This document shows, one piece after another, positions 1 through 54,707 of a DNA stretch of 54,707 nt; positions within the stretch are counted from its first letter, which is position 1; the number at the start of each line of letters is the position of its first letter. Source of the stretch: a virus. Lineage: Duplodnaviria; Caudoviricetes. Made by a program: the position numbers and the translations under genes. The notes beneath the pieces are model-generated. The model saw only the letters and a program-made list of their open reading frames with translations. It had not been told where the DNA came from and made no database searches. The stretch is from the IMG/VR virus record IMGVR_UViG_3300020455_000018, positions 1-54,707 of that record. One strand, given 5' to 3'.

Positions 1-83
1 GCAGCAGACCAATTAGGTTTCTCTACAGGCGGTACTAATAGAATGACTTTAACCAATAGTGGTTTAACTCTTGCTAATGGAGG
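1..83. repeat. Terminal direct repeat (left copy), matches 54625-54707; indicates circular/permuted assembly
   Basis: 83-nt match with a single synonymous mismatch at position 21 (TTC vs TTT). Confidence 0.95.
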
Positions 84-2187
84 TGTTTATTCTGGAGATA
101 GCACATCTGGAGTATTAAGCACAGGAAGTTGGGCAGGAGATTTAGTAAGTGGACAAAGTTTTGAAAGAGTTTGTGGATTATCTCATGATGGTGGAGAATT
201 TGTAATTGTTGAGAAAAATGGACAAGTAAGTACATTAATTGATGGTAGTTATTTTGCTTATGAAGCTGGTACTAATCAAGGAGGAGGTTTTTATAGTAGT
301 TCAGATAGTAGCTATGCTAATGCTACTGGTATTGTTGCAAGTGGTGGAACATTATATGTTAAACAAGCTGATGGAACAAATGCAAGTTTTTATGTTACTG
401 GAGATACTACAACAAATGGCTACATAAGTAGTAAAGATGCTTCAACTGATTTACGCTTAAGAAGAGGTACTAATAATGATGATATAATTATTATAGAAGC
501 ATCTCAAACAAGAATTATTGGAGATGCAGTAGAAAGAGTAAGATTTGGTAGTTGGGGAATAAGAAACAATTATTTTGGAAGTAATAGTGCTCCTTCTTAT
601 AGTTTTGTATCAGATACTGATACTGGTATGTTTAGAAGTGCAGCTAATCAATTAGGGTTTGCAGTCGGAGGTAATGAAAAAGTAACCATAGATAGTAGCG
701 GTAGAGTTGGTATAGGAGTTAATTCATCAATTCAAGAAGAACTTGATGTTGCTGGTGTAGGAAAATTTAGAGGAAACTCTCATAGTAGCGATGTTTTAGA
801 GCTTGGACAATTAAATGACGGAGCAACAACACAGCAATATTTAATAAGTACTTATGATAGTGCTGGTGGTATAAGAAATGTTGGCGACCACATGCAAATT
901 AAATCACAAAGATGGGGACAAGATATTACCTTTGCAAGAAATGGTCAAGGTGGAGCTGTTCCAACAGCAAGATTTTATAATAATGGTAGTAATGGCTATA
1001 TGGAATTATATAAAGCTAGTAATCCTAGTTCTGATGCTACTTATACAAATCCAGTACAATTAAATGTAAATGGAAATAGTTGGCTAAATGGAGGGAACGT
1101 GGGAATTGGTACCTCGTCTCCTGGTTCATTATTAACAGTATATAAAGATGGAACACAAGTATCTAGTCCAAGTACATCATATCAAATAATGACAGTATCA
1201 AATTCCAATGGTGGTATTGCTATACAAGCTGGTGCAAGTTCTGATGCATTTTTAGTATTTGGAGATTATGGGCAATATGACGCTGGAAGAATAAGATACC
1301 ATAACGATACACACTTTATGGACTTTTGTACTGCTGGTAATAATCCAAGAATGACTATTAAAAACGATGGTAAAATAGTTGTTAATGGTACTGATAGTGA
1401 TGGTATGTTTAGAGTTAATTCTACTTCAGCAGAAAACGCAGTAAAGATTTATGCTAATGCAGCAAGAGGAGCATCAAGACACGCTTTACATATTGACGAC
1501 AATGATACTAACGGAAGAGGAAGTGTTGTAATAGATAGTGCTAGTGGTACTGGTATGAAAATAACTACACAAAATAGTAATTGGAATATGGAGTTAGTTT
1601 CGGCAGATGGAGGTGGTAGTCCAGCTATGAGTATGGGCGTAAGAATGCAATCATTTGAAGGTAGAGCTAATGGACATTATCAATTTGATGAAGATTATAG
1701 CGGTCAATGGTTTAGTGGAAATAGATATGCTGGTAATATGCAAAGTTGGCAAGTAGGATATAGAGATGGAAGCTCAGGTAATACGCCTGATTATATAGAT
1801 AGAGCAAGAATATATGTAACTACTGATGGAGATTTGCATGCAAACGAAGATGTAATTGCATTTTCATCTACTATTGGTTCTGATAAAAAACTTAAAAAGA
1901 ATGTAAAAGATATTAATTATGGATTAAAAGATGTGCTAAATATAAGAGCAGTAGAGTTTGACTGGAAAGAAAAAAGAAAAGGTCAGCACGATATTGGATT
2001 TATAGCACAAGAAATAGAAAAAATTATACCTGAAGTAGTAAATGAAGTTATGACTATTGGAGAAGGTGCTAAAGAAGGCGATACTCACAAAACAGTAGAT
2101 TATGCTAAATTAACTTCAGTATTAATAAAAGCAGTACAAGAACAACAACAACAAATAAACGAACTTAAGGAGAAGTTAAATGGCTAA
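1..2187 (+). CDS. C-terminal part of long tail fibre with intramolecular chaperone (peptidase S74-like); continues ORF from 52705 across the junction
   Basis: In frame with 52705 through the terminal overlap; G-x-VGIGT repeats; C-terminal SDKKLKKNV...GFIAQEIE..PEVV...AVQEQQQQI chaperone motif. Confidence 0.9.
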   Translation, partial: AADQLGFSTGGTNRMTLTNSGLTLANGGVYSGDSTSGVLSTGSWAGDLVSGQSFERVCGLSHDGGEFVIVEKNGQVSTLIDGSYFAYEAGTNQGGGFYSSSDSSYANATGIVASGGTLYVKQADGTNASFYVTGDTTTNGYISSKDASTDLRLRRGTNNDDIIIIEASQTRIIGDAVERVRFGSWGIRNNYFGSNSAPSYSFVSDTDTGMFRSAANQLGFAVGGNEKVTIDSSGRVGIGVNSSIQEELDVAGVGKFRGNSHSSDVLELGQLNDGATTQQYLISTYDSAGGIRNVGDHMQIKSQRWGQDITFARNGQGGAVPTARFYNNGSNGYMELYKASNPSSDATYTNPVQLNVNGNSWLNGGNVGIGTSSPGSLLTVYKDGTQVSSPSTSYQIMTVSNSNGGIAIQAGASSDAFLVFGDYGQYDAGRIRYHNDTHFMDFCTAGNNPRMTIKNDGKIVVNGTDSDGMFRVNSTSAENAVKIYANAARGASRHALHIDDNDTNGRGSVVIDSASGTGMKITTQNSNWNMELVSADGGGSPAMSMGVRMQSFEGRANGHYQFDEDYSGQWFSGNRYAGNMQSWQVGYRDGSSGNTPDYIDRARIYVTTDGDLHANEDVIAFSSTIGSDKKLKKNVKDINYGLKDVLNIRAVEFDWKEKRKGQHDIGFIAQEIEKIIPEVVNEVMTIGEGAKEGDTHKTVDYAKLTSVLIKAVQEQQQQINELKEKLNG

Positions 2188-3638: not shown

Positions 3639-3929
3639 ATGGAAGTAGGAAAAGACACTAAGTTTAGTCTTACAATTGAAACAGCAATTAGTATTCTAGT
3701 TTCTGTTGGTATGGTTATTGGTATGTGGTTTACTCTTCAAGCGGATATTGAAGAAGCAAAAGAACTACCAGTTCCAGAAGTGGGTCGTACAGAATATGAT
3801 TTAAAAGACCAAATGATACGAAACACCATCATAGAAACGCAAAAAGATGTAACAGAAATGAAAGAAGAGCAAAAAGAAATGCGTGATGATGTCAAGAATA
3901 TCGAACGTATGATGATGCAACAAAACTAA
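3639..3929 (+). CDS. Membrane protein: one N-terminal TM helix plus coiled coil (i-spanin-like topology)
   Basis: GGAG RBS; ISILVSVGMVIGMWF hydrophobic helix followed by a heptad-rich tail. Confidence 0.75.
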   Translation: MEVGKDTKFSLTIETAISILVSVGMVIGMWFTLQADIEEAKELPVPEVGRTEYDLKDQMIRNTIIETQKDVTEMKEEQKEMRDDVKNIERMMMQQN

Positions 3930-4015
3930 TGAGGTACAGAGATGAACTTATATTATGGTATTTTATCGTTACTTGGTTTGTCGTTGTGGCTTACGCCATT
4001 ACACTCACAAGGTAA
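3929..4015 (+). CDS. Putative 28-aa single-TM peptide overlapping the next gene in another frame
   Basis: TAATG coupling to upstream stop; MRYRDELILWYFIVTWFVVVAYAITLTR. Confidence 0.4.
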   Translation: MRYRDELILWYFIVTWFVVVAYAITLTR

Positions 4016-11865: not shown

Positions 11866-14800
11866 ATGAATGGACAAAATAAAGAAAATATATTAGACGC
11901 ATTGTCTAGTGTTCTAGAAGAAAAGCAAGGTCAAGTTAATCAAAACACACAAAGCGACCTATTTGACTTAAGCACAGCAATAGATTTATCCCCCGAAGAA
12001 GCTGTATATAATGATGTAGGTAAAAGTTTGTTTGAAGCTGTAACTGCAGGTCCAACTGCAGCAGTAAAAACTCTTACTTTTGATTTTCTAGATTTAGAAA
12101 AAATGGGTGTTGTAGATAAACCAAAAACAAAACTTGGTCAAGCATCTGAATCTATAGGTACTATGGGAGGTTATTTATTAGGTTATAAAAAAATATTACA
12201 AGGAGGTAAAATTGTTGTAGGCGGTATTGGTAAACAAGCTGCAAAAGGAACAAAATTAGGCAATACAATTAGACAAGCAGATGTTCAAAGAGAAGGAATA
12301 AATAAAGCCTTAAAAGGAGTTAGAATAACTAGAGATGGTAAAAAAGTATCTAGAGCTGATTTTATTAAAGATGTTGTAGACCCTGAACTTTTAAATCCTA
12401 TTAAAAACTTTTCTCATTTAGCTCAAATATTTAGGTCTTCTAAAAAAATGGATGCTAATATTTTTGATGATATTATGCGCACAAGAGCTGGAGAGTTTTT
12501 AGTTAAAGCTGGTAAACAACGTGGATATACTATTGGAGCAGGTACAAAAATTATTGGGGGTAAACCAAGAAACGAAGTAGTTGATAGAATTACTAGAATT
12601 GCTAGCGATAATTGGAAAAACATAGGAGGTAGACCTATTAACACTCTTCCAGATTTAATAAGTTCATCGCTTCCTGGAAGTGGTAGATTTAACGCTTTAG
12701 CAGGACATATGGTAGAAGATATGTTAGCTTATGGTGTAGTAGAGGGAGGATTTGTTGCTTCTAGACATATAAGAGGAGAAGAACAATTGCAAACTCCACA
12801 ACAATTCTTTACAGAAATGATGGGATTTGGTGCATTAGCAGGTGCTTTAAGATTTATTCCTGGTGGAGCTCCTCAAGGTTCTCTTAGATTATGGAAAAAA
12901 CAAGATAGAGATAATTTAAAATTATTATTTGGTGGAACTAAAAAATTCATGAATAATGTTAAAATAAACGGTAAAAAAAGTCAAAATAATAGAGAAGACG
13001 TTTTAAATGGATTTAGTTATTTTAGGAGAATGAGACATCCAGTAGTTGAAAGTTCTTTTAATACTAGTATATATAGTAAAAAAAATGAAGGTTTAAGAAA
13101 AATGTTAAAAGGCGATTTAACAATGGATAATCTTAGAAAAATTACACAGAAAGGAACTCCAGAAGAAAAAGAAGCCGCTGCATTATTAATGAAAAGAGCT
13201 ATGAATGAACTTGGTCAAGATATTGCTACAACACATAGAAAACAATTTTTAGAGTTTATTAAAACAGATTGGTGGCAAACTAAACCAAGACAATTAACTG
13301 GGGCTCTTTTATTAGGTGGAGCTCAACAATTTATGACTGGTCAAGCTTCCGAAGTAACTCCTGATAATGTTTTGGGAGGTATGTTAGGATATTTTATGTT
13401 TAAAAGAGGACATAAACTACAATACAAAGGAAAAGGAGCAGAAGCTGATACTTGGATAACAGGAGGTAGTGGTTGGAATAGAGCTTTAGGTGATGAGCAA
13501 ATATATTTAAAAGAAATGGTTAATTTCAGTGAAGCAATGCAATTTAGAACAGACCACGAATTATGGATGCCTATTAGAGCCAAAGTAATGCAAAGCGATG
13601 TTTCAGGTGCAAGTGCAAGTGAAATGTTAAAAATGGCACAATTAGACATACAAAGTCCTAAATATATGGAAGCTGATGCTTTAATAAATACTTCTTACAA
13701 ACCTAAAAAAGGTGAAAAACAAGGAAAGTTATTATTTGTAACAAAAAATAGAAATATACAATCTAAAGATATTTCCAAAAAAGAAAGAGAAGAGTTAAAC
13801 GCTTTAGGAACAGATAGAGTAGAAGGAATACGTAAAAGCTATGATGCTTTTGTTGAATACTTTGACAATCCTAGTTATTTACCTCAAAAAAATAGAGGAT
13901 TTAAACCATTTGATTCTTTAAATAAAAAAGAAGTTTTAGAGTTTGAATCTAGAATTAAATCTATGGGAGCTAGAATTGGATATTCTAGTGATATTCAAAT
14001 ACTTGCTGGTAGAATTATTAAACCTACATTTGAAAAATCTGTAAGTGATTTAAGTAACGAATTAGTAGATTTATATAGTCAAGCACAAAAATCTGGAATG
14101 GTTGGAATAGAGTTTCCTACTAGACCTATTATAGAGCCAGATGCAATTACAGGTAAAAATGTTTATACTTTTCCTAGGTTAATTCAAGGAAACATACAAT
14201 GGAAAAAAGCAGAATATGCAAATATGTTTGAAGAAATAACTGGTATGGTAAAGTATGCAGAAGAATTTTCTAAAGGAACAGTTAAATACTCAGGTAAAGA
14301 AATTAAAGTTAATGAAGGAGATATAGACCAAGATGTATTTTTTAGTACTATGATGGGTATAAAAAGAGGATTTACTAATAATTATAAAGCTTCGCAATTT
14401 TCAGATGAAGGAATAGATAGACCTGTCACATTTTCTACTACTGATTGGGTTTTTCAACAAAGTAGAACAATGAAAACTATATTTGACGCAGAAGATATAG
14501 TAGAATTTGTTCCAAAAGTTTTAGATTCACAAGCTGGATTAGATGCTAGTTCTTTGCCTTTAATAAGAAAACAATTACAAGATGTTTTTCAGGAAAACGA
14601 TGCATGGAGATATCGTGCTGAACATTTTAATTTAACTGGCTTAAATAAAAAAAATAAAGCATTTATAGAAACTATAGCTCCTATGTTAAGAAGCCAAGGA
14701 AACGACTCTATAAGTTTCAAGGGTAATGAGAAAAAATTAAAAGATTCAGATGTTACTCCTTTACGAAATTCATTTATTTCTTCTGGTTATGTAAGATTTA

Positions 14801-17800
14801 AAAATGATGAAGTTTCTCCTGTGTTTAATGATGTAGTAGATGATTTAATGTGGAAAGAAGATTTTTTAAGTAGACGTAAAATAGATGAAAATGGAGATTT
14901 AGCAACTTACGATAATCGTGATAGGGAAATTATAACTATTTTTGAAGAAGCTAATATTTTAACTAATAGACGTAGTACTTCAGTTCCAGCAGAAATAGTA
15001 GCTGTACGAAGTTTAAATACTAACGAAATTCAAAAAGCTGATTCATTTGTAAAATATATAGACGAATATGTTCAAAACCCGCAAGACGCACAAATACATA
15101 ACGATATGCACAAAGCATTGCAAAAAGTACATAATGATTTAGACCCTAAACAAATTGATGAATTACATTTATCGTTAATAAAAGATATACAAACATATAT
15201 AGAACCTTATATGTATAGATTTGACGAAAAGCTACAATCTAACGTAGGTCATTTAAGACCAAGTACTGAAAAATATTTAATTTTTGACGCAGATATTATT
15301 CGTGACATGAGAAATAAAATTGAAGCTGTAAAAGTAGCAGATATGAATTACAATCTTACTACATTTGCAGAAAGTGTTGCTGAAATGAAACAATCTACTA
15401 TTGCACAAGAATCACAATTAGCATCTTTAGTGTATAAATCATTAAAAGAAAATTCTCCAAGACTAGATAGTTATTATACTTTATTAATGAATCATGGATA
15501 CATGAATAACAAAACAAGACAATTAAAAAGACCTCCAAAAAATGATAAAAAATATAATGCTTACTATAATGATTTACGAGATTTGTTAAATCAAGAAAGT
15601 AAAAAATCTTGGGGAGATGTAAATCAAGAATGGATAGACAAAACTGAAAAAATACTAGATGCTGATGCTAACAATCTATCAGAAGTTAATAATTTAGCTA
15701 TTACTTTACCAAAATTTATAAGTAAATATGGAACTGATTTAAAAAACAATTCAGATAATCCTTTGTTTCAAGAACAGTCACAATATCCTAACAATTTATT
15801 AAAACAATTACAAGAATATCATAGTATTGCAGACATACAATCTGGAAAATTAAAAGGACTTTTAGGCTGGAATGGAGATACAGCTAAATTTTTAAAAGAT
15901 TTAAGAAAAGAAACTATTAAAACAAACAAAGATGTTGATGTAGATGTTTTAGACCAAGAATTAATTAGTATTGGAGCTACATTAAATAATAAAACTCAAA
16001 TGAGATTATTAACTTTTGACCAAGAAGCAAGACCAAATCAATTTGAATACGTTACAATGGAACAAAATCTATTATTAGATTCCTTAGAAGACATATTTAA
16101 AGTTAACGGATTGCAAGATTCTGTTTTTATGATTAATAATAGTGGGTTTGCTAGAAATAGTTATAGACCAATGAACTCATTTAAAGATGAAGTTTTTATG
16201 TCAAATGCTTTAAGAAAAATGACAAGCGATGGATATGCTCAAGTTAATAATAAACTTATAAGAAATAAACAATTAGACGACCCTGTTGATGTTATTACTG
16301 GAGCTATAATACCTATAAGGCTTAATAGAAATACTGTTATAGGTATAAAAATGGATGATAGCGTAATGCGTGAAATTGCTAATAATTATGTAGATTGGAG
16401 AAAAGCTAACAAATTAGCATATGACGCAATAGAAGGAATAATTTTTGATGAAGTAACTCAAGATTATAAAACTGATTTTAATAAAAACGCTGAAGAAACT
16501 GCAAACAAATTAACAAAATGGATGCAAGATTTAATTTTTGGTAAACCAGTAGAACAAGGAGGAATAGGATATAAGACATGGCAAAAAATAGATTCAGTTC
16601 CTTCTAAAGACCAATATAAAGGATTAAAATATTTTAAATTGCATGACAATAAAAGTGCCAAAGTAATTAAATCAGTAGACTTGAAAACTATGATTAAATA
16701 CATAGATGGAAGAACAATTAAAAATCCTAAATTATTGGAAATGAAAAAAACAATGCAAGGTATATTAAATAATGAATATAATATAGTATACTATACAGAT
16801 GAAAGTGTTAATAAAGCAACTAAATCTAAAACTGGAGGAGTTCAAGATATATTTAGTTCTCATACAACAGCAAAAACTAATTTTGACAATGAATTTAAAT
16901 CAATTACTGGTAAAGAATTTGATGATTTAGATAGTAAAGATATACAAAAGTTCAACAAAGTTCAACGAAGAGCTTATGATGCGATTAAAGAAGATTTAGG
17001 TCAAAAAGATACATCTATCGTAGATGGAGCAACGTTTCAACCAAAAGAACTAGCAGAATTACAAGCTATGTTAAGTGGTAGAACATTAAATGAATTAGAT
17101 GAAGTTTCAGGAAATAAGCTTATAGGACAAAAAGCAGATAGTAAAGGTGAGTTAGTTCCTATTAAAACAGCTAAACTGCCTAATATAGCTTCTAAACATT
17201 TACCAGACGAATTAACTAGCGCAGATAATAGTAAAACAATTTTTGTAAATACTAGTTCCGCTAAAGCTATAGGTAATTATAGTGATGAATTTTATAATAA
17301 AGTATTAGAAGTTAATAGTTTTAATGATTTTATAGGCATAGATGATTTCCATAAAAATCCTTACACAATAGAAGATTTTAAATTGTTAAGCACAAAAGGT
17401 AAAAAAGAAGGTAAAATGGTTCCTAATTTTACTGGTTATTTTTATAAAATGCCTAATCACGTAAATGTAATGAATGATTTTATAGAATATAATATGACTC
17501 AAAATGTTAGAAACAATAACGCTATTATTAAACAAGCGTTTTCTAGTTCTGATAGAATGCAAGCAAAAGAATTGTTTTTTGAATTAACTTTAGCACAAAG
17601 TAGAATAAAAAGCGCTGAATTAAATGATGTAGATACACAAGCTGGAGTTTTATTAAAATTAGCTCAACATGGTATTGACCCAATAATGTTTAGAAATCAA
17701 TTTTTTAATATGTTTGATAAAAAATATATGTTTGATGATAAATTAAAATTTTCTAATGATGCTGTTATTCATCCTGATATGACAGGAAGTTTAAAATCTA

Positions 17801-20664
17801 CAATAGCAGATAAACAAGGAGTTATTACTTATGGAGAAAGTTTAGAATCTTGGGTAACTCGCAATAAAACTATAGAACAACAAAATATGGCTTTTATTAT
17901 GAGAGATGCAGGCGGTTTAGATACTTTAGTTCATTATGAAGATTTACGATTAATGAGTAAAAAAGATTTACAAACTGCATTTAAACTTACTAGCAAAGAA
18001 TCTGCAAAATTAAAAGACATGTTTAATCAAAAATTTGACACAATGGGACAATTGTATGATTATATATCTCCAAAAGGTAAAGCAGGTTTTGGAATAAAAA
18101 ATATGCAAATAGCTTCTATAGATTTTAGAAATCCAATTTCTAAAATGAATAGTATTATTGTTACTGGTATAAAAGATTTTGGTGGAAAAAATGAAAAAAA
18201 TAAAAAAGTAATGGGTGCGTTAGATGTTATAAATCATTTAAAAGGAGACTATGACATAGACAACGTAATTAGTATTTATGCGCAACCTAAATCAGTTTGG
18301 TATGGATTTAACGATTTAATGGGTCAACATATATATACTCCAGAAAGCAATAATGCAAAAAATAATTTTGATAAATTTGAATTAAAAAATAGACAAAGTC
18401 TTCAAAAATTAATAAGCAATGAAAGAGTTGGAGACCAGGTAAAAGGTACAGCAATGAACTTACCTTCACAAATTAGCTGGTTAGTACAACCTAAAACACG
18501 TATGCCTCATGGAGAAACAGTACAAGGTTTAGTAATAAAAACAGGTGTAGGTAGATATGTAAAAATTAAAGATAACTTTTCAGATTTAAAGAATACAGAT
18601 ATTGAAGCTAAAATAGATGAGTTCAATCAAGATGCTTTAGATGCAGAAACTGGTGGTTACAATGTTCAAAAATTAACTAAAGATAAAATGTTAAATAGAA
18701 TTTTTACAGACCAAGACGGAATTTTAGAAGTCATTGTGTATAAAGATGGAAACCAAATAAAACAAAATATTCAAGGAGATACATTAAGAGATATGGATAA
18801 ATTTGTTTTTTATGAGTATTTAAAAATAAGAGATAATTTATTGCTTAATTCTGGAGGTAATTGGAGTTCTGGAGAAAAGAAAACAGCTGTAGCGACTGAT
18901 GAAGTTCGTGCTTGGGGTGAATATAGTCAAAAAATGAAAAATCCAGCTGATGCTATTAAGAAAAAAATAAGATATATGTTTGCTGATGAAAATGGAAAAT
19001 TAGACCCTGAAGTACAAAAGGTTATAGAGAATTTGAATTTTAATGGACATAATATGGATGTACACCCTGCATTAAAATTGTCAACACTTAAAAACCAAAC
19101 AGATGCAATAAAAGCTACAGCTTTAGAAAATGTATTGCCGTTAGACTATAAACTAGCAGTTAAACACGAAGCTTATCATAAAAATGTAGAATACGGAGCA
19201 ATATCTTCAGCAGATAGACTTATATATGATGCTGGTTATACTACTTGGGTAGAAGATGTTATTGTTGGAAAAAGCGATGTTATAAAAGATGATTGGTTTA
19301 GTAATCAAAAATTTGAAGAACAAAATCAAGCAATTCAAGAATTAAGAAATAAGTTAAATAGTTTAAGAGAACAAAGAAATGAATTTTTAAATATTAATAA
19401 ATTTGATAGAAACGATATTGACAACAAGCAAATAAAATATTTTGATAATGCAATAGATAATGTTAGTAATTTTATTAAAAAACAAAGCAAAACATTAAAA
19501 GAAATGTCTCTTGATAAAAAACTACAACAACAAGATGTAGATTCTATAAAAAATTACATTAGAAGTAAAATTCAATATGAAAATCAAAAAAATAAAATAG
19601 AAATGACAAGCGAAGAGTTAGATGGTAGAGTTCAAGAAGAATTTAAGAAATCTATTTATGAAAATGCTAGACAAGAAAGAACAATATTTACTTTAGCTGT
19701 TCAAAATTTTAGTGGAAGTTCTTTAGATGCTATAAATGGTAGAGGAGGAAAATTAAGCGACAATGTTAAAAAAGACATTGAAGATTTTAGAAAAGATTAT
19801 AATAGAGATTTTATTGCGGTTACTAACAAAGGTAATGAAAATTATGCGCCTCAAGATTTTAATATGTTAGCTTTTAATTACGAAGGAAGATTGTTAAGAT
19901 TGATACAAGAAAATGGATTAAAAGGAGTTCAAGTAGATGCAGTTTTACATAATATTATGGCTCCTAGTTTACAAAAAAATAAATATTCAGTTTATAATGG
20001 AATATATAGTCCTGTATCTGATAATAAAGGATTTACAACAAGAATGATGTTAGCTTTAAGATTTAATGCAAAAGCAAGAGTAGAAAGTTTAAATGAACAA
20101 GTTATGTCTGATATGTTTTTTAAAGACTTTGCAGAAGTTTCTAATAAATCTATTGAAACATTAATTGGCTCTACAAATTTAGAATATATATCTCCTCACA
20201 TGAGAAGTGAAGCAAGACCAATTATGGTTAAAACATTTATGCCTAATCAACATAGTAAAGATTTGCTAGATATTATGTCTCCATTTAAAAAAGCTATAGA
20301 ACAAAGCAATTTAAGTCAATTAAGTTTTTATGAAAGATTTTATTTTGCTAGAAATAGCGGTTTAGAAGCGGCAATGTTAAATTCTAATGATTCGTATGGA
20401 GGTTATGTTAGAATGTACAACGAACTTACAGGAAAAGATGTTCTTGTAGATGGTATGCCAGGATTTAAAACTGCATTAGATGAAGGTTCTCGTTCAGGTA
20501 GAACAATAGATGGTAATAGAATTAATCCTTTATTAAATGTAGGACCAAATCCAAACACAAAACCTCCAAAAACTTGGGCAAGTAAAGGCAATCATTCAGA
20601 AATGAGAAAATTTAAAAAAGAACGAGCTAAAATGATTTGTAATAAAACAAAAGGAATGAAATAA
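11866..20664 (+). CDS. Giant virion protein, probable two-barrel (double-psi) virion RNA polymerase
   Basis: GDYDID at aa 2127-2132 (nt 18244-18261) with R-N-P at aa 2088-2090; upstream DG (D1720), K1751 and SSAK (K1800); located in ejection cluster. Confidence 0.72.
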   Translation: MNGQNKENILDALSSVLEEKQGQVNQNTQSDLFDLSTAIDLSPEEAVYNDVGKSLFEAVTAGPTAAVKTLTFDFLDLEKMGVVDKPKTKLGQASESIGTMGGYLLGYKKILQGGKIVVGGIGKQAAKGTKLGNTIRQADVQREGINKALKGVRITRDGKKVSRADFIKDVVDPELLNPIKNFSHLAQIFRSSKKMDANIFDDIMRTRAGEFLVKAGKQRGYTIGAGTKIIGGKPRNEVVDRITRIASDNWKNIGGRPINTLPDLISSSLPGSGRFNALAGHMVEDMLAYGVVEGGFVASRHIRGEEQLQTPQQFFTEMMGFGALAGALRFIPGGAPQGSLRLWKKQDRDNLKLLFGGTKKFMNNVKINGKKSQNNREDVLNGFSYFRRMRHPVVESSFNTSIYSKKNEGLRKMLKGDLTMDNLRKITQKGTPEEKEAAALLMKRAMNELGQDIATTHRKQFLEFIKTDWWQTKPRQLTGALLLGGAQQFMTGQASEVTPDNVLGGMLGYFMFKRGHKLQYKGKGAEADTWITGGSGWNRALGDEQIYLKEMVNFSEAMQFRTDHELWMPIRAKVMQSDVSGASASEMLKMAQLDIQSPKYMEADALINTSYKPKKGEKQGKLLFVTKNRNIQSKDISKKEREELNALGTDRVEGIRKSYDAFVEYFDNPSYLPQKNRGFKPFDSLNKKEVLEFESRIKSMGARIGYSSDIQILAGRIIKPTFEKSVSDLSNELVDLYSQAQKSGMVGIEFPTRPIIEPDAITGKNVYTFPRLIQGNIQWKKAEYANMFEEITGMVKYAEEFSKGTVKYSGKEIKVNEGDIDQDVFFSTMMGIKRGFTNNYKASQFSDEGIDRPVTFSTTDWVFQQSRTMKTIFDAEDIVEFVPKVLDSQAGLDASSLPLIRKQLQDVFQENDAWRYRAEHFNLTGLNKKNKAFIETIAPMLRSQGNDSISFKGNEKKLKDSDVTPLRNSFISSGYVRFKNDEVSPVFNDVVDDLMWKEDFLSRRKIDENGDLATYDNRDREIITIFEEANILTNRRSTSVPAEIVAVRSLNTNEIQKADSFVKYIDEYVQNPQDAQIHNDMHKALQKVHNDLDPKQIDELHLSLIKDIQTYIEPYMYRFDEKLQSNVGHLRPSTEKYLIFDADIIRDMRNKIEAVKVADMNYNLTTFAESVAEMKQSTIAQESQLASLVYKSLKENSPRLDSYYTLLMNHGYMNNKTRQLKRPPKNDKKYNAYYNDLRDLLNQESKKSWGDVNQEWIDKTEKILDADANNLSEVNNLAITLPKFISKYGTDLKNNSDNPLFQEQSQYPNNLLKQLQEYHSIADIQSGKLKGLLGWNGDTAKFLKDLRKETIKTNKDVDVDVLDQELISIGATLNNKTQMRLLTFDQEARPNQFEYVTMEQNLLLDSLEDIFKVNGLQDSVFMINNSGFARNSYRPMNSFKDEVFMSNALRKMTSDGYAQVNNKLIRNKQLDDPVDVITGAIIPIRLNRNTVIGIKMDDSVMREIANNYVDWRKANKLAYDAIEGIIFDEVTQDYKTDFNKNAEETANKLTKWMQDLIFGKPVEQGGIGYKTWQKIDSVPSKDQYKGLKYFKLHDNKSAKVIKSVDLKTMIKYIDGRTIKNPKLLEMKKTMQGILNNEYNIVYYTDESVNKATKSKTGGVQDIFSSHTTAKTNFDNEFKSITGKEFDDLDSKDIQKFNKVQRRAYDAIKEDLGQKDTSIVDGATFQPKELAELQAMLSGRTLNELDEVSGNKLIGQKADSKGELVPIKTAKLPNIASKHLPDELTSADNSKTIFVNTSSAKAIGNYSDEFYNKVLEVNSFNDFIGIDDFHKNPYTIEDFKLLSTKGKKEGKMVPNFTGYFYKMPNHVNVMNDFIEYNMTQNVRNNNAIIKQAFSSSDRMQAKELFFELTLAQSRIKSAELNDVDTQAGVLLKLAQHGIDPIMFRNQFFNMFDKKYMFDDKLKFSNDAVIHPDMTGSLKSTIADKQGVITYGESLESWVTRNKTIEQQNMAFIMRDAGGLDTLVHYEDLRLMSKKDLQTAFKLTSKESAKLKDMFNQKFDTMGQLYDYISPKGKAGFGIKNMQIASIDFRNPISKMNSIIVTGIKDFGGKNEKNKKVMGALDVINHLKGDYDIDNVISIYAQPKSVWYGFNDLMGQHIYTPESNNAKNNFDKFELKNRQSLQKLISNERVGDQVKGTAMNLPSQISWLVQPKTRMPHGETVQGLVIKTGVGRYVKIKDNFSDLKNTDIEAKIDEFNQDALDAETGGYNVQKLTKDKMLNRIFTDQDGILEVIVYKDGNQIKQNIQGDTLRDMDKFVFYEYLKIRDNLLLNSGGNWSSGEKKTAVATDEVRAWGEYSQKMKNPADAIKKKIRYMFADENGKLDPEVQKVIENLNFNGHNMDVHPALKLSTLKNQTDAIKATALENVLPLDYKLAVKHEAYHKNVEYGAISSADRLIYDAGYTTWVEDVIVGKSDVIKDDWFSNQKFEEQNQAIQELRNKLNSLREQRNEFLNINKFDRNDIDNKQIKYFDNAIDNVSNFIKKQSKTLKEMSLDKKLQQQDVDSIKNYIRSKIQYENQKNKIEMTSEELDGRVQEEFKKSIYENARQERTIFTLAVQNFSGSSLDAINGRGGKLSDNVKKDIEDFRKDYNRDFIAVTNKGNENYAPQDFNMLAFNYEGRLLRLIQENGLKGVQVDAVLHNIMAPSLQKNKYSVYNGIYSPVSDNKGFTTRMMLALRFNAKARVESLNEQVMSDMFFKDFAEVSNKSIETLIGSTNLEYISPHMRSEARPIMVKTFMPNQHSKDLLDIMSPFKKAIEQSNLSQLSFYERFYFARNSGLEAAMLNSNDSYGGYVRMYNELTGKDVLVDGMPGFKTALDEGSRSGRTIDGNRINPLLNVGPNPNTKPPKTWASKGNHSEMRKFKKERAKMICNKTKGMK

Positions 20665-34641: not shown

Positions 34642-34905
34642 CTATAATAACCTTCTTAAATCATATAATAATTGATTGTTATTTTGAGTATCTTCTAACA
34701 CATACTTACCAAAGTTTGCTTCTTTGTGTTGTATTCTTCTAGTATCAATATCAAAACCTTCTTCTCTAAGTCTAAATATAATAGCACTTAGCCTTGTTGC
34801 ACGATAAAGTTCAAATGCATCTAAACTCGTAATATTACCATATTTCTTTAAGTGTCTTAATATCTTTACTGTTTGAGTATTTTTTCCAACTGTAAATCTT
34901 AACAT
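34642..34905 (-). CDS. Winged helix-turn-helix protein (HTH_39-like)
   Basis: ILRHLKKYGNITSLDAFELY.ATRLSAIIFRLREEGFDI. Confidence 0.85.
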   Translation of the reverse strand: MLRFTVGKNTQTVKILRHLKKYGNITSLDAFELYRATRLSAIIFRLREEGFDIDTRRIQHKEANFGKYVLEDTQNNNQLLYDLRRLL

Positions 34906-35105
34906 TAGTACCTCTCAATCTTAATTCTAGTTTTCTTCTTTAAGAACTCACGAGTGTTTTGCATTAATCTTACAAACCAATGTGTTCTTCTGTAATTATT
35001 TAAAGCATCAACTATTGCTATTGCTTTACCACTACCTTTATGGTTTATGGAATATGCATTTGCATAATTATCATATCCATAATAATCTCTAACATCTTTT
35101 TTCAC
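34905..35105 (-). CDS. Hypothetical protein
   Basis: GGAGG RBS, GTG start. Confidence 0.7.
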   Translation of the reverse strand: MKKDVRDYYGYDNYANAYSINHKGSGKAIAIVDALNNYRRTHWFVRLMQNTREFLKKKTRIKIERY

Positions 35106-35118
35106 TACTTTTCACCTC

Positions 35119-35640
35119 CTATGGCTGAAATGCCCATGGTTTAACTGGAAACCATAATCTTGCTTTATTTTTTAAAGTTCCATTTTTATTTATATCTTGA
35201 TGAAATATATAATAATTTTTCTTTAAGATAAATCTTGTATCAGTTTTAAATGGAATAATTTTAGTTTTAGGTATAAAATAATAAGGTCTACCATGCTGGT
35301 CTTCATGCATAGATAACCAAGATACTTTAGTAAACTTTTTATCTATTATTCTCCACATTTGATAACGTGGAATAGTATGTAAACTTTTATAATGCTTTCT
35401 ATATTCTTTCACTTCATCTGTTACAACTATATTATCATCCCACATAGTATTAAACTTTTTTATTGTTTCTTTATAATAATCATTAGGAGTTATATGATAT
35501 ATATATTTATTATTAAACACTACCATATAATATGTTTTACCATGTCTATCTTTAGTTCTTCTAGCCCAAGCCATAGAATTTAACATTGTATCATATCCTT
35601 GACTACCGCTTTGTGTAAATGGTGCTAACAAATCTTTCAT
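35119..35640 (-). CDS. Hypothetical basic/aromatic protein
   Basis: AAAGAGGTAG RBS, 173 aa. Confidence 0.75.
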   Translation of the reverse strand: MKDLLAPFTQSGSQGYDTMLNSMAWARRTKDRHGKTYYMVVFNNKYIYHITPNDYYKETIKKFNTMWDDNIVVTDEVKEYRKHYKSLHTIPRYQMWRIIDKKFTKVSWLSMHEDQHGRPYYFIPKTKIIPFKTDTRFILKKNYYIFHQDINKNGTLKNKARLWFPVKPWAFQP

Positions 35641-35679
35641 ATCTACCTCTTTCTTTTTATTTAATCTTTTTTTTAAGCT

Positions 35680-36480
35680 GGAATCCTGAGATTATGGATT
35701 ACAATGATATAACTTTAGCTAGGTTTTAGCCTAAACTCCCTTATTTGTTAGGAGGCATATCCACTCAGTTTTTATTCACCGAGTATTATATCAAGCCCAA
35801 TAGGTATCGCCTATCACTCTTACTTCTGAGTTATTTCTACCCCTACTAAACTATTACTGGATTGCCACCCAATGAATAGTATTTCGGAATACCTAGCGAA
35901 CTTGGAAGTTCATCTAGACATCTTCTATTACAAAGATGCTCGAGGGCTCTATGCTCTCAGAAGTTTCAAGTCTTTTCCCGATTGGTTTTGCCAATCACTC
36001 GTCATTGTTTATAACACGTATTTGTGTCTCTATAATTAGAGTAGACTATCAAAGTGAAACATGTGCTTGAAATAGCAATCAGGACTTCCTTTTGAGAAAT
36101 CTATTGATTAACATGTCTCTATGTTCCTTATAGGAAAAGGTTTACATGGTCTTGGCTGTCTTATACTTACACTTTCATATAAGCATCTATACACCGACTA
36201 AATATAACAACCTGGTTCCTACACCTTTATGTCATATTCTATGGATTATTCCTATTGCTATTACTAGCTCAATTGATGTTGATTCACCAATATAGACTCC
36301 TACTAAGCGCCTGAAGGACTTACTTAATAGTTTTCTATGTATTCCAATTGCATACTCAAACACCAAAGTATATTGATGTCGCATTAATAACCCTACAATA
36401 AGCTATTAATACTTTATCCTTGTTTCCAAGTTTATTTAACGATTATATACAACCGATTCTTTTATGGCAGAATGGACCAA
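35680..36480 (-). ncRNA. Putative giant structured ncRNA (~800 nt), GOLLD/ROOL-like
   Basis: No ORF of 60 aa or more; many nested helices with minus-strand G-U pairs and GNRA loops; long-range closure 36351-36360/35685-35696. Confidence 0.7.
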
Positions 36481-36497
36481 ATCTTTATTGAACTTTA

Positions 36498-36766
36498 TTA
36501 GATAGTATAAAGTCGTGAAGTCGTAAACTCACATTTAAGTCTAGAATTTATAAATGCGCTCAGTTAATTAATGTCACGAACTAAATATTAACTACCTAGT
36601 CATATTCAGATAATTCTATTGTCACCAACAAAATATGGACAACACGTAATGTTTTCAATCATCAAAAACTCTTCCTGACCGCTAGGCATACATTGTAATG
36701 TAATTTGACTAGGTTTGTTTTCTATTACTAACATTCGTTTAACTATTCCTTTTATATACTATCTAA
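36498..36766 (-). ncRNA. Putative ~270-nt multi-stem RNA
   Basis: 12-bp closing stem 36498-36509/36755-36766; inner 9-bp 36594-36602/36706-36714 and 36513-36518/36574-36579. Confidence 0.6.
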
Positions 36767-36775
36767 AATAATGTA

Positions 36776-36833
36776 AAGGCGCACCAAGAGGTAAACAACT
36801 AACTTACTACGCTAAACTGATAAGATGCGCCTT
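36776..36833 (-). promoter_or_regulatory. 3'-UTR hairpin displaying anti-RBS sequence
   Basis: 10-bp stem AAGGCGCAUC/GGUGCGCCUU; loop contains UUUACCUCUU. Confidence 0.55.
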
Positions 36834-37038
36834 AATAAATACTATGTAATGAGCGCTTTAATAACATTGTATCTAATTCTATGATACGTTGTCTTAGCTC
36901 ACTAGCTGTTGTATTATTTCTAATAATTGATAATTCTCTAGTATAAGGTAATGGATACCCATATACTTCTTTGAAAGAATCTTTATACTGTATTAATAGT
37001 ATATCTCTTTCATTATAACTCATCTCACTTAATGTCAT
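36832..37038 (-). CDS. Hypothetical early protein
   Basis: AAAGAGGTAG RBS identical to that of the 35640 gene. Confidence 0.72.
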   Translation of the reverse strand: MTLSEMSYNERDILLIQYKDSFKEVYGYPLPYTRELSIIRNNTTASELRQRIIELDTMLLKRSLHSIY

Positions 37039-37075
37039 ATCTACCTCTTTTTTTTAGTTTTATTATGTGTTGATA

Positions 37076-37105
37076 TAGAGACAAGGGGACTAATCCTTAT
37101 CTCTA
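37076..37105 (-). promoter_or_regulatory. 11-bp hairpin upstream of an early gene
   Basis: UAGAGAUAAGG/CCUUGUCUCUA stem, loop AUUAGUCC. Confidence 0.5.
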
Positions 37106-37135
37106 CATCTTACTATAATGGTCATAGTATAAATC

Positions 37136-37225
37136 TTATCTATATTCATTTATAGAATATATATAACTATTAAATTCTCTAATATCTGCATTAACTTCTA
37201 TTAAATCTGTTAAGTCATTATTCAT
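37136..37225 (-). CDS. Possible 29-aa peptide (MNNDLTDLIE...)
   Basis: Open frame with weak AAGAG RBS. Confidence 0.35.
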   Translation of the reverse strand: MNNDLTDLIEVNADIREFNSYIYSINEYR

Positions 37226-37242
37226 TTATATCTCTTTTCAGT

Positions 37243-37262
37243 TTATCCCCATGTTATCCACA
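37243..37262 (+). promoter_or_regulatory. Two tandem DnaA boxes (TTATCCCCA, TTATCCACA); candidate origin
   Basis: Perfect consensus box at 37254-37262 and a 1-mismatch box 11 bp upstream, near an AT-rich tract. Confidence 0.55.
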
Positions 37263-37339
37263 TAATGTGTATATATAGAGTGTTTCTACTATCTACCTTT
37301 CTTTTCTTTTATTAGTAATATAAATAAATATAATACAAT

Positions 37340-37383
37340 AAAAAAAACTGCAAGAGAGGACTAAGCCAATAAATAGTCCTCTC
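37340..37383 (-). terminator. Intrinsic-terminator-like hairpin
   Basis: GAGAGGACTA/TAGTCCTCTC 10-bp stem, followed on the minus strand by TTGCAG and a T run. Confidence 0.55.
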
Positions 37384-37414
37384 CCAATAATATACTTATC
37401 TCATAGATTCCTCC

Positions 37415-37684
37415 TTAAGAATTTAATATATCGTCTACGCTTTGTTCTGGTGCAGCATTAGGGTTATTCATATGCTGTTTAATAGCTCCAAGAATCTTGA
37501 GTCTATCTTTTACATCAGATGCAAGTTCTCTAGTATTCTTTGGCACTTCAGTGAAGCCTCCGAATCTATTGTCTTGAAATGACTTTGTACACTTGAATGA
37601 GTTACCTACTTCAAGTATCATTTTAGCCATGCTTGCATCTACCAGGTTGTCAGCGGAGTATCTTGATTGTGCTTTCTTTGCCAC
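37415..37684 (-). CDS. First gene of the early block, hypothetical (89 aa; GTG start)
   Basis: GAGGAGG RBS before GTG 37684; the longer track ORF extends into the control region. Confidence 0.72.
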   Translation of the reverse strand: MAKKAQSRYSADNLVDASMAKMILEVGNSFKCTKSFQDNRFGGFTEVPKNTRELASDVKDRLKILGAIKQHMNNPNAAPEQSVDDILNS

Positions 37685-37815
37685 AATAACCTCCTCTTTA
37701 GTTAGGTTGATATTAATTACAATTCGTTTATAACGTAATTCTATATACTTATAATCCCCATCAGAGGGGGTACATACACATATATGAGTGCATTTCAAAA
37801 TCCTACAATTTTTTG

Positions 37816-37844
37816 TTGCAAATAACATGGGGTATACTTATATT
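37816..37844 (+). promoter_or_regulatory. sigma70-type promoter TTGCAA-N17-TATATT for the packaging/late block
   Basis: Canonical spacing, upstream of AAGGAG RBS. Confidence 0.7.
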
Positions 37845-52704: not shown

Positions 52705-54707
52705 ATGGCAACAATTAACAAACTCAAAATTAGGAGTGGTACAAACCTTTCAAATGCTGGTACGCCTGATTTAGGTGAATTAATATTTAAAAGTGATACT
52801 AATGCATTATATGTTGGTGATGGTTCTACTGCAGCTACTGGTTTAACAGCTATCGGTGGTAGTGCTACAATAAATAATTCTAATTGGTCTGGTACTGATT
52901 TAGCAGTAGCTAATGGTGGTACTGGAGCATCTACTTTTACTTCTAATGCAATATTAACTGGTAATGGTACAAGTGCTATACAAGCAGAATCTAATCTTAC
53001 TTTTTCCGATAGCAACAATTATCTTACTGTTCACGAAGCTGGTTCAAGTACTGGCTCACATCTAAGACTTGCAACAGACAATTCAGATTTTTTCTTATCA
53101 GCAAGTGGTAGTTCAAATCAATTAACTATTTATGATGCTAATGCAGCAACTAATAGTTTAGTAATGGGTAGTGATGGTAAAATTACACTTAGAGATAGTC
53201 TTAAAATACCAGTAGGTAAAAGTGTATTTTTTGGAGGAAGTGAGCATACTTATATAAGAGAAGATGTAGATGATAGGTTAAGATTCTTTTGTGGTGGAGA
53301 TGAGTTTTTAAGATTCACTCAACAAGATGCAGCAGGAGAATTATTTAGTATTCATCAACAAGTATATATGGGAGATGATTTAAAAATTCATCTTGGTGGT
53401 AGTCAAGAGTTAAGATTGTGGCACGATGGAACAAATAACTATGTTTATGGCTATGGTGGAGAACTTCGTATAGGAAATACTGTTGATAATGCAGATACTG
53501 TATTGTTTGGAGATGATGGTAGTGGTAATATGACTTCTTACTTAAGAGTAGATGGTAGTGATAGTAGAGTAGACTTTTTTTCTGGTAGAATTCATTTAAA
53601 AAATGATGGTACGTTTCATTGGGGTAGTGCAGCAGCACACGGAGTATTGTCTTGGGATACTGGTAGAGCAATAGTTAGTAGTTTAGGGTCAAATAATTTA
53701 GATTTAAAAGCACAAAGTGGTTATTCGGTAGTAGTAAATGAAAGTAGTTCTGATGTAGATTTTAGAGTAGAAAGTAATGGTAAAGTAAATGCAATTCATG
53801 TAGATGCTGGTGCTGATAAAGTAAATATAGATGCAGCATTTTGGTCTAATTATGGACATAGAATTGGTGGATTATCACAACAAGGTGGTTTTGGAACAAA
53901 TAATAATCAATTATTTACTACTAACAACATAATGACTTTTGCAGACAATACTAATTGGGATGGTGCAATGGTTATTAATACCAATATTACTAGAGCTTCT
54001 GCTCGTATGTGTACTATTACAGTTAAAGGTTATGGTTATGGTAATCAATCTTTTATAGATTTTGATGTTAATTTTTATACTTATTCTGGTGTTAACGGTG
54101 ATGACGGAGTAGCTGGTTATCCTTATGCTGCAAGAATCAATGATAGAGGTAATGATAAAAAGAAAAAATTTGTAGGTGTTAATTCAAGCGGTAATGTAGC
54201 AATAGCTATTGGAGATTATAATGATGCAAATAAATATTATTATGGATTTAAAGTAAGTTTAGATAATCATTTGAATGGAAGTGGTGCATCTGCTTATCAA
54301 AGTTGGACAGTAACAAAATCTACTACTGATGGATTTGGTTGGTTGCACAAGGAAGAACCTACAAGATTGATAACTGGTATTGCGTCACAAGATGCAAGTT
54401 ATACTAAGATATTAAACCCTAATGGTGCTGTATCTGCGTATTTTGGCGGAACTGCTGATGGGAATAATTATTATCAAGCTGGGGAACATAGATTTAGAAA
54501 TTATGCTGGTAATGCTTATTATGCAAGAATTGGTTCAGGATATATTCGTGGAGAAGGTGGTGGTTCAGCTTCAACGCCTTGTTTTAGTTTTCAAAGTGAT
54601 ACTAATACTGGTGTTTATAGTCACGCAGCAGACCAATTAGGTTTTTCTACAGGCGGTACTAATAGAATGACTTTAACCAATAGTGGTTTAACTCTTGCTA
54701 ATGGAGG
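52705..54707 (+). CDS. N-terminal part of long tail fibre (open to window end; about 1368 aa when joined to 1-2187)
   Basis: AAGGAG RBS, ATG 52705; MATINKLKIRSG...GELIFKSDTNALYVGDG; absent from the ORF track, consistent with no stop before the end; in frame with the overlap. Confidence 0.88.
   Translation, partial: MATINKLKIRSGTNLSNAGTPDLGELIFKSDTNALYVGDGSTAATGLTAIGGSATINNSNWSGTDLAVANGGTGASTFTSNAILTGNGTSAIQAESNLTFSDSNNYLTVHEAGSSTGSHLRLATDNSDFFLSASGSSNQLTIYDANAATNSLVMGSDGKITLRDSLKIPVGKSVFFGGSEHTYIREDVDDRLRFFCGGDEFLRFTQQDAAGELFSIHQQVYMGDDLKIHLGGSQELRLWHDGTNNYVYGYGGELRIGNTVDNADTVLFGDDGSGNMTSYLRVDGSDSRVDFFSGRIHLKNDGTFHWGSAAAHGVLSWDTGRAIVSSLGSNNLDLKAQSGYSVVVNESSSDVDFRVESNGKVNAIHVDAGADKVNIDAAFWSNYGHRIGGLSQQGGFGTNNNQLFTTNNIMTFADNTNWDGAMVINTNITRASARMCTITVKGYGYGNQSFIDFDVNFYTYSGVNGDDGVAGYPYAARINDRGNDKKKKFVGVNSSGNVAIAIGDYNDANKYYYGFKVSLDNHLNGSGASAYQSWTVTKSTTDGFGWLHKEEPTRLITGIASQDASYTKILNPNGAVSAYFGGTADGNNYYQAGEHRFRNYAGNAYYARIGSGYIRGEGGGSASTPCFSFQSDTNTGVYSHAADQLGFSTGGTNRMTLTNSGLTLANG
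54625..54707. repeat. Terminal direct repeat (right copy)
   Basis: Matches 1-83 except for one base. Confidence 0.95.

Follow-up and report, generated by a model that had tools for sequence, protein, structure and literature searches.

A divergent GOLLD RNA in a marine virus genome belongs to a branch that scores below the Rfam cut-off

What occupies positions 35641-37414 of a gene-dense viral genome, where no ORF of at least 80 aa is found inside a leftward gene block? The window that we analysed is the whole 54,707-nt IMG/VR record IMGVR_UViG_3300020455_000018, which CheckV rates as 100% complete and which has a G+C content of ~31%. Its genes run rightward to ~23.6 kb, leftward from ~38.0 to 23.7 kb, and then rightward again. 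The leftward block is given to replication and recombination (a DnaB-like helicase, a DNA methyltransferase, a Sak-like annealing protein, SSB, a Cas4-like exonuclease, a resolvase and a winged-helix protein), and the rightward block that starts at 38.4 kb carries the small and large terminase and a P22-like portal. With terminase, portal, DnaB-like helicase, SSAP and resolvase all on the record, the locus is of phage origin; the genome is that of a marine podovirus-like phage, and the element described below sits in its leftward early block. The portal protein had no relative in 185,579 species genomes, TerL was at most 24.5% identical to its counterparts in phage records, and a blastn search of 50,697 phage records with 35641-37414 as query returned no match. 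A sequence-only reading of this DNA had suggested that 35680-36480 encodes, on its minus strand, a giant structured RNA that resembles GOLLD or ROOL or else forms a new class. GOLLD was reportedly first described in 2009 by Weinberg et al., and GOLLD cages have been known since 2025.

Among relatives the element stands out as a conserved block with a sharp start at 36485/36486 and an end at ~35677, upstream of which the sequence is unrelated between lineages. The proposed limits were therefore nearly right, conservation moving them to 35677..36485. The 5' end of the RNA lies between 36485 (the conservation boundary) and ~36466 (the ends of RNA-library contigs), and its 3' end at ~35677-35683. 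The minus strand has a folding energy of -226.9 kcal/mol, compared with -178.4 +/- 7.5 for 20 shuffled sequences (z = -6.47), while the plus strand reaches -165.7 (z = -2.40). Since the minus strand folds far below its shuffles and the plus strand less so, we take the minus strand to be that of the RNA, as had been proposed; folding no better than shuffled controls, which the sequence-only reading had named as counting against it, is clearly not what was observed. All nine pairings listed in that reading are fully complementary on the minus strand (9/9, 8/8, 7/7, 9/9, 9/9, 11/11, 10/10, 10/10 and 9/9). Together with the folding energy and the conservation block, this upholds its coordinates, its strand and its statement that no substantial ORF is present: no ORF that overlaps 35680-36480 reaches 60 aa. 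The longest have 55, 49 and 44 aa (plus strand) and 50 aa (minus strand), and the chance that the stretch encodes such small proteins is practically negligible, as the frames are broken by 4-, 16- and 28-nt indels among close relatives (those of 4 and 16 nt disrupt the minus-strand ORF, 36384..36232), substitutions track base pairing, and the plus-strand ORFs run against the local gene direction.

To which family does this RNA belong? The Rfam model of GOLLD, RF02032, matches 35683-36119 on the minus strand over its full length (model positions 1-416 of 416) with 116.5 bits and E = 1.9e-31, which bears out the GOLLD-like giant structured RNA of the sequence-only reading. A search of the whole record with RF02032 returned the same match (E = 1.1e-33), and none of 14 control genomes was hit by the model. 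Run on the window by default, with gathering scores applied, the Rfam scan was empty because 116.5 bits lies under the RF02032 cut-off of 150 bits, an operational threshold and no biological feature; GOLLD appeared only in E-value mode. The description of the RNA as divergent was thus apt. The published survey of the family, which counts 806 members, used cmsearch with E<1e-5 as its criterion (PMC12286853), and the window RNA passes it. The motifs UCAAAAG, AGCAC, AAGAGUG, GUGGAUA and AUAAUCUCA are in register with the model. Two motifs that the sequence-only reading had likened to those of GOLLD, UCUCAAAAGG and the 3' AUAAUCUCAGG, do occur and fall on the model's invariant L14-type (first-hairpin) loop and last loop, respectively. 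The suggested likeness to ROOL found no such backing: within 35300-37500 the ROOL model did not match at E<=10, nor did it match the window at the gathering score. Four other families with weak Rfam hits around the element (snoR28, U4, BtsR1 and ZNRD1-AS1_2; E = 0.46-8.4) were set aside as chance.

As RF02032 covers only the conserved 3' half of GOLLD, the 366 nt of the 5' domain were examined separately. An nhmmer profile built from the 5' domain of the window's branch (see below) matched 15 of 30 canonical GOLLD loci with E-values from 2e-13 to 5e-4. Each match shared the strand of the 3' domain and lay 109-340 nt upstream. No match to this profile was seen at the remaining 15 loci, as expected given the variable 5' domain of the family. 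Long motifs common to branch and canonical 5' domains were seen when 11 branch and 12 canonical sequences were aligned together with MAFFT (A2). When the predicted 5' helices of the window RNA were mapped onto A2, 74.0% of cells were paired compared with 35.5-40.7% when slid, and the covariation score was 0.352 compared with 0.084-0.111 when slid, a value reached by none of 500 shuffles. Three of the helices are paired in 95-100% of cells, with 3/4, 7/8 and 3/4 of their pairs changed on both sides; the CUUG-GAAA-CAAG hairpin (Table 1) is paired in 48/48 cells in the canonical rows alone. At its 3' side the 5' domain is ~50-80 nt shorter than in environmental GOLLDs (~420-450 nt in the 12 aligned canonical RNAs, one of which has 356 nt), and ~60-80 nt at the 3' side of the canonical 5' domain have no counterpart in the window RNA. 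A possible equivalent of the GAAA-capped stem at 36163-36186 is L11a, a conserved GAAA loop. With 366 + 437 nt, the total length is 803-809 nt, within the ~700-850 nt typical of GOLLD.

The full-model match of the 3' domain and the homology of the 5' domain, with its shared helices, show that both domains are GOLLD. A giant RNA of a new class, with no relation to GOLLD or ROOL beyond a likeness in short motifs, might have been suspected from the missing match at the curated Rfam threshold and from the empty blastn search of phage records. It is refuted by the full-length covariance-model match and by the homologous 5' domain with covarying helices common to canonical GOLLDs, and with the closest relatives reaching 141.2 bits it is left as an extremely improbable reading. 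The possible new class of the sequence-only reading falls with it, both domains having canonical GOLLD homologues. We conclude that the window RNA is almost certainly a GOLLD, a new divergent member of the known family and not a new class. The best explanation overall, and a very probable one, is that 36485..35677 on the minus strand is a two-domain, folded, cassette-borne GOLLD RNA gene. The sequence-only reading had also remarked that no tRNA cluster is nearby, and indeed a tRNA search of the whole window found none. A tRNA neighbourhood is typical for GOLLD and not defining: tRNAs lie within 1.5 kb of 14 of 30 canonical loci and are missing around the other 16, so the lack of one here, as at all 15 branch loci (0/15), is unremarkable.

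Table 1. Parts of the GOLLD locus, with coordinates in the 54,707-nt window and the evidence for each.
Feature	Position	Strand	Evidence
Whole RNA gene, very probably GOLLD, ~809 nt	35677..36485	-	Conservation block, folding z, covariation, RNA-library contigs
5' domain, 366 nt, homologous to the 'cap' of environmental GOLLDs	36120..36485	-	nhmmer and joint alignment
Hairpin CUUG-GAAA-CAAG, common to canonical GOLLDs	36419..36430	-	100% of cells paired in 23 sequences; 3/4 pairs changed on both sides
GAAA-capped stem of 10 bp	36163..36186	-	90% of cells paired, 6 compensatory pairs; loop kept in 4/4 types
3' domain, 437 nt	35683..36119	-	Full-length RF02032 match
First long hairpin, UCAAAAG loop (putative P13/P14)	36056..36119	-	CM alignment; covariation (helices 17-19)
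Variable linker (putative J13/15)	35965..36055	-	Aligns to the model's unpaired linker with a 19-nt insertion
Enclosed core	35822..35964	-	Helix 35956-35964/35822-35830 aligns to the model's enclosing 10-bp helix
Single inner hairpin, GGCA loop at 35862-35865 (putative P21a)	35856..35873	-	Stem covaries (helix 33, 6 compensatory pairs)
Terminal hairpin AAUCC-AUAAUCUCA-GGAUU (putative P27/L27)	35682..35700	-	Aligns to the model's last element
173-aa ORF of unknown family; syntenic anchor outside the RNA	35119..35640	-	ORF list; starts 37 nt after the RNA

The 3' domain can be followed element by element along the model (Table 1); we infer the P-numbers used here (P13/14, J13/15, P21a/b, P27 and L11a) from the text of the published descriptions. 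In the UCAAAAG hairpin, the outer stem is paired in 99/99 cells, and in 7 of its pairs both bases have changed. The linker that follows is the least conserved part of the RNA (36-82% identity, with a 28-nt indel among relatives), a variability that fits the disordered interior linker, J13/15, of the solved cage. The helix that encloses the core is paired in 85% of cells and has 3 compensatory pairs. Inside it, the covariance-model alignment deletes 18 model positions (~250-267), which make up the second of two hairpins in the enclosed junction, so that the window RNA has one inner hairpin where RF02032 has two; the missing one would be of the P21b type. Both inner hairpins are kept in the relative type L131, while the window type and L123 have one. 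The loop of the inner hairpin is self-complementary in each type (GGCA or GGCG, CGCGCA, and CUAAUUA, the last in the first inner hairpin of the L131 type), and the stem covaries. A self-complementary loop on a covarying stem is also the logic given for the L21a self-kissing bridge (B8) in a passage of PMC12286853. At the 3' end of the RNA, the stem of the terminal hairpin covaries (CC/GG, GU/AC and GG/CC types) around an invariant loop.

We then asked whether relatives of the RNA preserve its fold. A sequence-only MAFFT alignment (A1) holds 11 distinct full-length RNAs, which fall into about four sequence types and therefore do not amount to 11 independent observations. RNAalifold predicted 134 pairs on A1, 61 of them with compensatory changes. 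In an alignment-independent test, the MFE fold of the window sequence alone was mapped onto A1: its 252 pairs were paired in 85.7% of cells, compared with 39.3-41.0% when slid, 86 pairs were changed on both sides compared with 23-29 when slid, and the covariation score was 0.303 compared with 0.060-0.081 when slid, a value that none of 500 shuffles reached. In the 3' domain, helices 17-19, 27, 29, 30, 33, 34, 38 and 41 carry pairs changed on both sides. A lack of covariation in homologues had been named beforehand as an argument against a structured RNA; covariation is present, in 86 pairs over about four types. The individual stems of the sequence-only reading, scored over the 11 relatives, fared differently. 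Compensatory pairs back the stems 35822-35830/35956-35964 (3 pairs), 36056-36064/36111-36119 (7), 36201-36209/36230-36238 (4) and 36381-36391/36402-36412 (6), as well as the GAAA hairpin at 36163-36186 (6). For 35705-35712/35786-35793 the pairing is conserved and the sequence is invariant, without covariation. Stem 35701-35707/36002-36008 is weak, with 71% of its cells paired and a single compensatory change. Compensatory changes are missing altogether from 36285-36294/36369-36378, which is also in competition with two local hairpins for which covariation is seen. The proposed pairing over 660 nt of UUGAGUAUG with the last loop is unlikely: it overlaps the closing pair of the last hairpin, and in the env-38 structure the last loop is engaged inside the 3' domain (PMC12286853). 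The two motifs that it would join are nearly invariant, which puts the pairing beyond the reach of covariation. Two long-range helices were discarded as well. One, from the MFE fold (RNA positions 31-41/131-141), is replaced by a covarying local hairpin, and the other, from the 5' end to the 3' domain (A1 columns 8-12 with 778-782), conflicts with another prediction.

The low score of the window RNA is a property of a whole branch. A generic 3'-motif scan of IMG/VR gave at least 119 stretches, and the records of the first 50 were searched with RF02032. Forty of them match, 38 with scores above the cut-off (159.2-325.4 bits), so that the window RNA scores well below these ordinary viral GOLLDs. 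The two below the cut-off have 106.3 bits and, for a partial match, 60.2 bits; the 106.3-bit record belongs to the window's branch. The branch itself was gathered through homologues of the 173-aa gene (12 loci) and through a 5'-domain motif (15 stretches). All 14 branch records with a complete RNA show a full-length model match below 150 bits (89.7, 106.3, 110.8, 113.9 twice, 116.1, 116.5, 119.2, 127.4, 136.3 twice, and 141.2 three times). Some cmscan runs missed the RNAs of L121 and L123; since these same RNAs score 119.2 and 89.7 bits elsewhere, the misses are filter losses and not absences. Three further contigs, which end inside the RNA, gave no RF02032 hit. In a metagenome collection, 15 motif stretches led to 11 contigs with the RNA, of which 8 hold it at full length; 7 of these copies are at least 99.0% identical to sequences already collected and the eighth is new (86.6%). 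The metagenome copies were left out of A1. The sequencing runs that contain the RNA stretch come from nine studies and are labelled marine or aquatic metagenomes in all cases but one, which bears a coded organism label; two of the runs may have yielded the window itself. The branch motif gave no stretches in 185,579 bacterial and archaeal species genomes. A brief literature search found no paper on such a marine sub-cut-off GOLLD branch, and we make no claim that it is unpublished.

Could the low score instead mark a decaying, non-functional GOLLD relic? The score under the gathering cut-off, the loss of one consensus hairpin and the dispensability of the RNA in relatives (see below) would all fit such decay. 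However, compensatory changes keep the helices across types with 41-49% identity in the 3' core, loop motifs are invariant, all 14 tested records keep the full-length model match, and the element is present in RNA libraries. We consider a relic highly improbable. What the scores point to is an entire marine-virus branch of GOLLD under the Rfam cut-off, comprising 14 of 14 tested records and 11 metagenome contigs. As a consequence of these scores, catalogue-based annotation leaves a seemingly empty gap of 0.8 kb in such genomes, and adding branch sequences to the RF02032 seed would cure the missed detection. GOLLD as it is known remains unchanged by these findings.

The 173-aa gene downstream of the RNA gave us a handle on the neighbourhood. 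Its product has no match in PHROG or Pfam, and its homologues (68-92% identity) are found on 12 viral contigs, of which 7 carry the RNA just upstream and 5 do not. In 4 of the 5 contigs lacking the RNA, the distance from the upstream conserved element to the gene is 580-740 nt compared with ~1,580 nt. The five RNA-less records, which are 8-84% complete, gave no GOLLD match at E<=1. The right junction coincides with the 3' end of the RNA, similarity resuming at 35677-35640, and the left junction with its 5' end. The RNA is therefore a discrete cassette, carried or missing in close relatives, and its dispensability there argues for an accessory and not a core role in infection. The two domains also differ in their history. 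L123 is 70-79% identical to the window in the 5' domain and 49% in the 3' core, and what sets L178 and L131 apart is confined to the first 75 columns, where 85% compared with 65% of positions are identical to the window. This mosaicism fits cryo-EM, in which the two GOLLD domains are separate bodies (PMC12286853), and supports the view that the 5' and 3' domains evolve as separate modules of an accessory RNA. Presence or absence of the cassette and its mosaic domains narrow the possible functions.

For a GOLLD one would look for a discrete RNA that becomes more abundant in lytic growth. Assembled contigs from metatranscriptomes of three studies cover the element; they give neither strand, level nor timing, their ends need not be the true ends, and DNA carry-over is possible. 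A 760-nt contig of run X10 lies on 35646-36405 with 1 difference. The 793-nt contig of run X18, about as long as the RNA itself, lies on 35678-36467 and must stem from a relative, given its 15 differences and one gap. Run X20, of the third study, has three contigs between 35702 and 36465. All three runs leave parts of the 3.3-kb stretch uncovered, and run X17 covers 34643-35402 only, with no contig on the RNA. The X10 contig on the RNA has a depth of 351 compared with 21-186 for the other contigs of that run; neither such depths nor missing cover can rank expression. A missing minus-strand transcript had been named as evidence against the RNA gene; contigs from RNA libraries do lie on the element, and strand is not something that these contigs give. 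The contig ends at 36465 and 36467, in two studies, weakly hint that the RNA may start close to the first hairpin, ~20 nt into the conserved block. In every lineage, the conserved start is preceded by an A/T-rich hexamer. The number of promoter-like sites was not above chance (23 compared with 16.9 +/- 4.3), and the best one on the minus strand falls within the RNA itself, at 36470-36442, on a motif that canonical GOLLDs also conserve. That the conserved AAGATTTG at the 5' side might be a -7 box of the Bacteroidota type was considered and dropped, because the phage genes have strong Shine-Dalgarno sites. On the 3' side, a scan for terminators found no terminator-like site, Rfam and tRNA searches found no ribozyme or tRNA-like element next to the RNA end, and the ribosome-binding site of the next gene follows 25-30 nt after the RNA.

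This arrangement raises the question of whether the element is a long structured 5' leader that regulates the 173-aa gene in cis. No terminator-like site separates the RNA from the ORF, the two adjoin in 7 of 12 syntenic loci, and the X10 contig reaches 35646, 6 nt before the start codon. Against this, the gene persists without the RNA in 5 of 12 relatives, and in L121, L122, L124 and L131 a stretch with a small ORF lies between the two. The X18 contig ends at 35678. Moreover, the RNA is a full two-domain GOLLD, from a family that adjoins unrelated genes and tRNAs. A leader is thus very unlikely, and we return to a GOLLD RNA gene of its own.

How might such an RNA act? Transcription would begin at a promoter just upstream of 36485 and end ~40 nt before the next gene, and the transcript would fold into two separate domains, a 5' cap and a 3' ring. 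Copies would then join by loop-loop contacts, with self-kissing loops joining the rings, into a closed RNA cage. Such a cage would be a dispensable helper in lytic growth, perhaps enclosing or sequestering a host macromolecule. Passages of PMC12286853 and PMC12990946 describe solved GOLLD members that self-assemble without protein into cages of 12 or 14 subunits, and discuss the encapsulation of tRNAs, ribosomes or other molecules. By homology with these members, and in view of the self-complementary loops on the covarying inner hairpin, we lean towards a homo-oligomeric cage for the window RNA as well; any particular cargo or role assigned to it is improbable.

Among the closest known counterparts is the env-38 GOLLD, an 833-nt RNA that forms a 14-mer cage with D7 symmetry (PMC12286853). 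Like it, the window RNA is marine, phage-borne and ~0.8 kb long. The order of parts is that of env-38 and RF02032: a cap domain, the UCAAAAG hairpin, a variable linker, a multi-hairpin core and a terminal hairpin with the loop (G/A)UAAUCUCA; the 5' domain is of the type found in high-scoring environmental GOLLDs. It differs in its setting within an early-gene block, directly before a protein gene and with no tRNA nearby. A second solved member, from Streptococcus agalactiae, bears on the missing hairpin. In passages of PMC12990946 it is described as a 700-nt RNA, also without P21b, that forms a closed 12-mer cage. As this RNA assembles without P21b, loss of the hairpin is compatible with assembly and does not disqualify the window RNA. 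The two are otherwise distinct: by the description in those passages, the S. agalactiae RNA also lacks P9 and P11a-c and is shorter, and it comes from Lactobacillales, whereas the window RNA is marine-viral and has a long 5' domain with the GAAA stem at 36163-36186. The self-kissing P21b hairpin would be one contact joining the two half-shells. It is possible, though we hold this only tentatively, that the marine branch is a natural structural variant with an env-type cap and a ring without P21b, for which a different subunit number or half-cages could be envisaged. If so, the branch would offer a structural test of cage geometry and a comparative handle on the use of the cage to the phage, and it is a cheap candidate for learning how differences in secondary structure set 12-mer or 14-mer geometry. 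ROOL, which forms 8-mer or 6-mer cages, shares with the window RNA its large size, ornate structure and association with phages; unlike ROOL, which gave no model match, the window RNA has the architecture of GOLLD.

Approximately 750 nt upstream of the divergent GOLLD RNA gene, on the same minus strand, lies a 37-nt element that is nearly identical in four other viral loci, and whose flanks diverge among these loci (see table). It contains a sequence identical to the DnaA-box consensus, followed 4 nt later by a second copy carrying one mismatch. The element is possibly an origin of phage replication or a site under DnaA control.

Features of the window and of related viral loci
Feature	Location	Strand	Details
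Conserved element, 37 nt	window 37241-37277	minus	97-100% identity in L125, L127, L131, L132
Listed 137-aa ORF	window 37415-37828	minus	from ORF list
Terminator-like hairpin	window 37335-37385	minus	9-bp G+C-rich stem, 12-nt loop, T8 run; after gene ending at 37415
Terminator-like hairpin	window 36775-36832	minus	GGCGCA...TGCGCC; after 68-aa ORF
Extra stretch separating RNA from 173-aa gene	L121, L122 ~3885-4000; L124 ~3800-4000; L131 ~3725-4000
tRNA Lys inside RF02032 match	L157 1826-1899		ARAGORN
tRNA SeC-like inside RF02032 match	L158 1564-1637		ARAGORN
tRNA Lys inside RF02032 match	L159 1827-1900		ARAGORN
ORF running off 3' end of record	window 52705-54705	plus	Mtd_N (tropism determinant) domain
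ORF running off 5' end of record	window 1-2187	plus	C-terminal Peptidase_S74 chaperone domain
2,932-aa ORF	window 11866-20664	plus

The 0.9-kb region separating the listed 137-aa ORF from the RNA varies among related phages, and here holds ORFs of 29, 68 and 42 aa. The true start of the listed ORF is probably the GTG at 37684, which has an AGGAGG site ahead of it and would give a product of about 89 aa; a Pfam search with the product returned no match. Because they have loops of more than 8 nt, both terminator-like hairpins escaped our terminator scan.

The two borders of the RNA also differ between relatives. In L131 and L181, a different hairpin-forming sequence stands in place of the first hairpin (the first ~35 nt), and in L123 this replacement sequence is found ~70 nt further upstream. 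This arrangement suggests that the usual 5' end in L131 and L181, together with any promoter ahead of it, was lost through recombination or deletion. At the other border, four loci carry an extra stretch, in some cases with a small ORF inside it, and the distance from the RNA to the 173-aa gene downstream is therefore variable.

The tRNAs called in the three canonical GOLLD loci (L157-L159; 194–213 bits against the Rfam model RF02032) are embedded in the GOLLD linker. In this they resemble the Mycolicibacterium GOLLD, for which a review reports tRNAs within the linker (PMC12990946).

Marine-phage GOLLDs of the window's branch are missed through search filters as well as through the score threshold: the permissive cmscan mode dropped true matches in L121 (119.2 bits) and L123 (89.7 bits), a loss that varied with what else was searched alongside.

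Finally, the ORFs at the two ends of the record may be halves of one tail-fibre gene, separated when a circularly permuted genome was linearised, but their reading frames do not meet exactly. The 2,932-aa ORF alone takes up 16% of this 54.7-kb podovirus-like genome.
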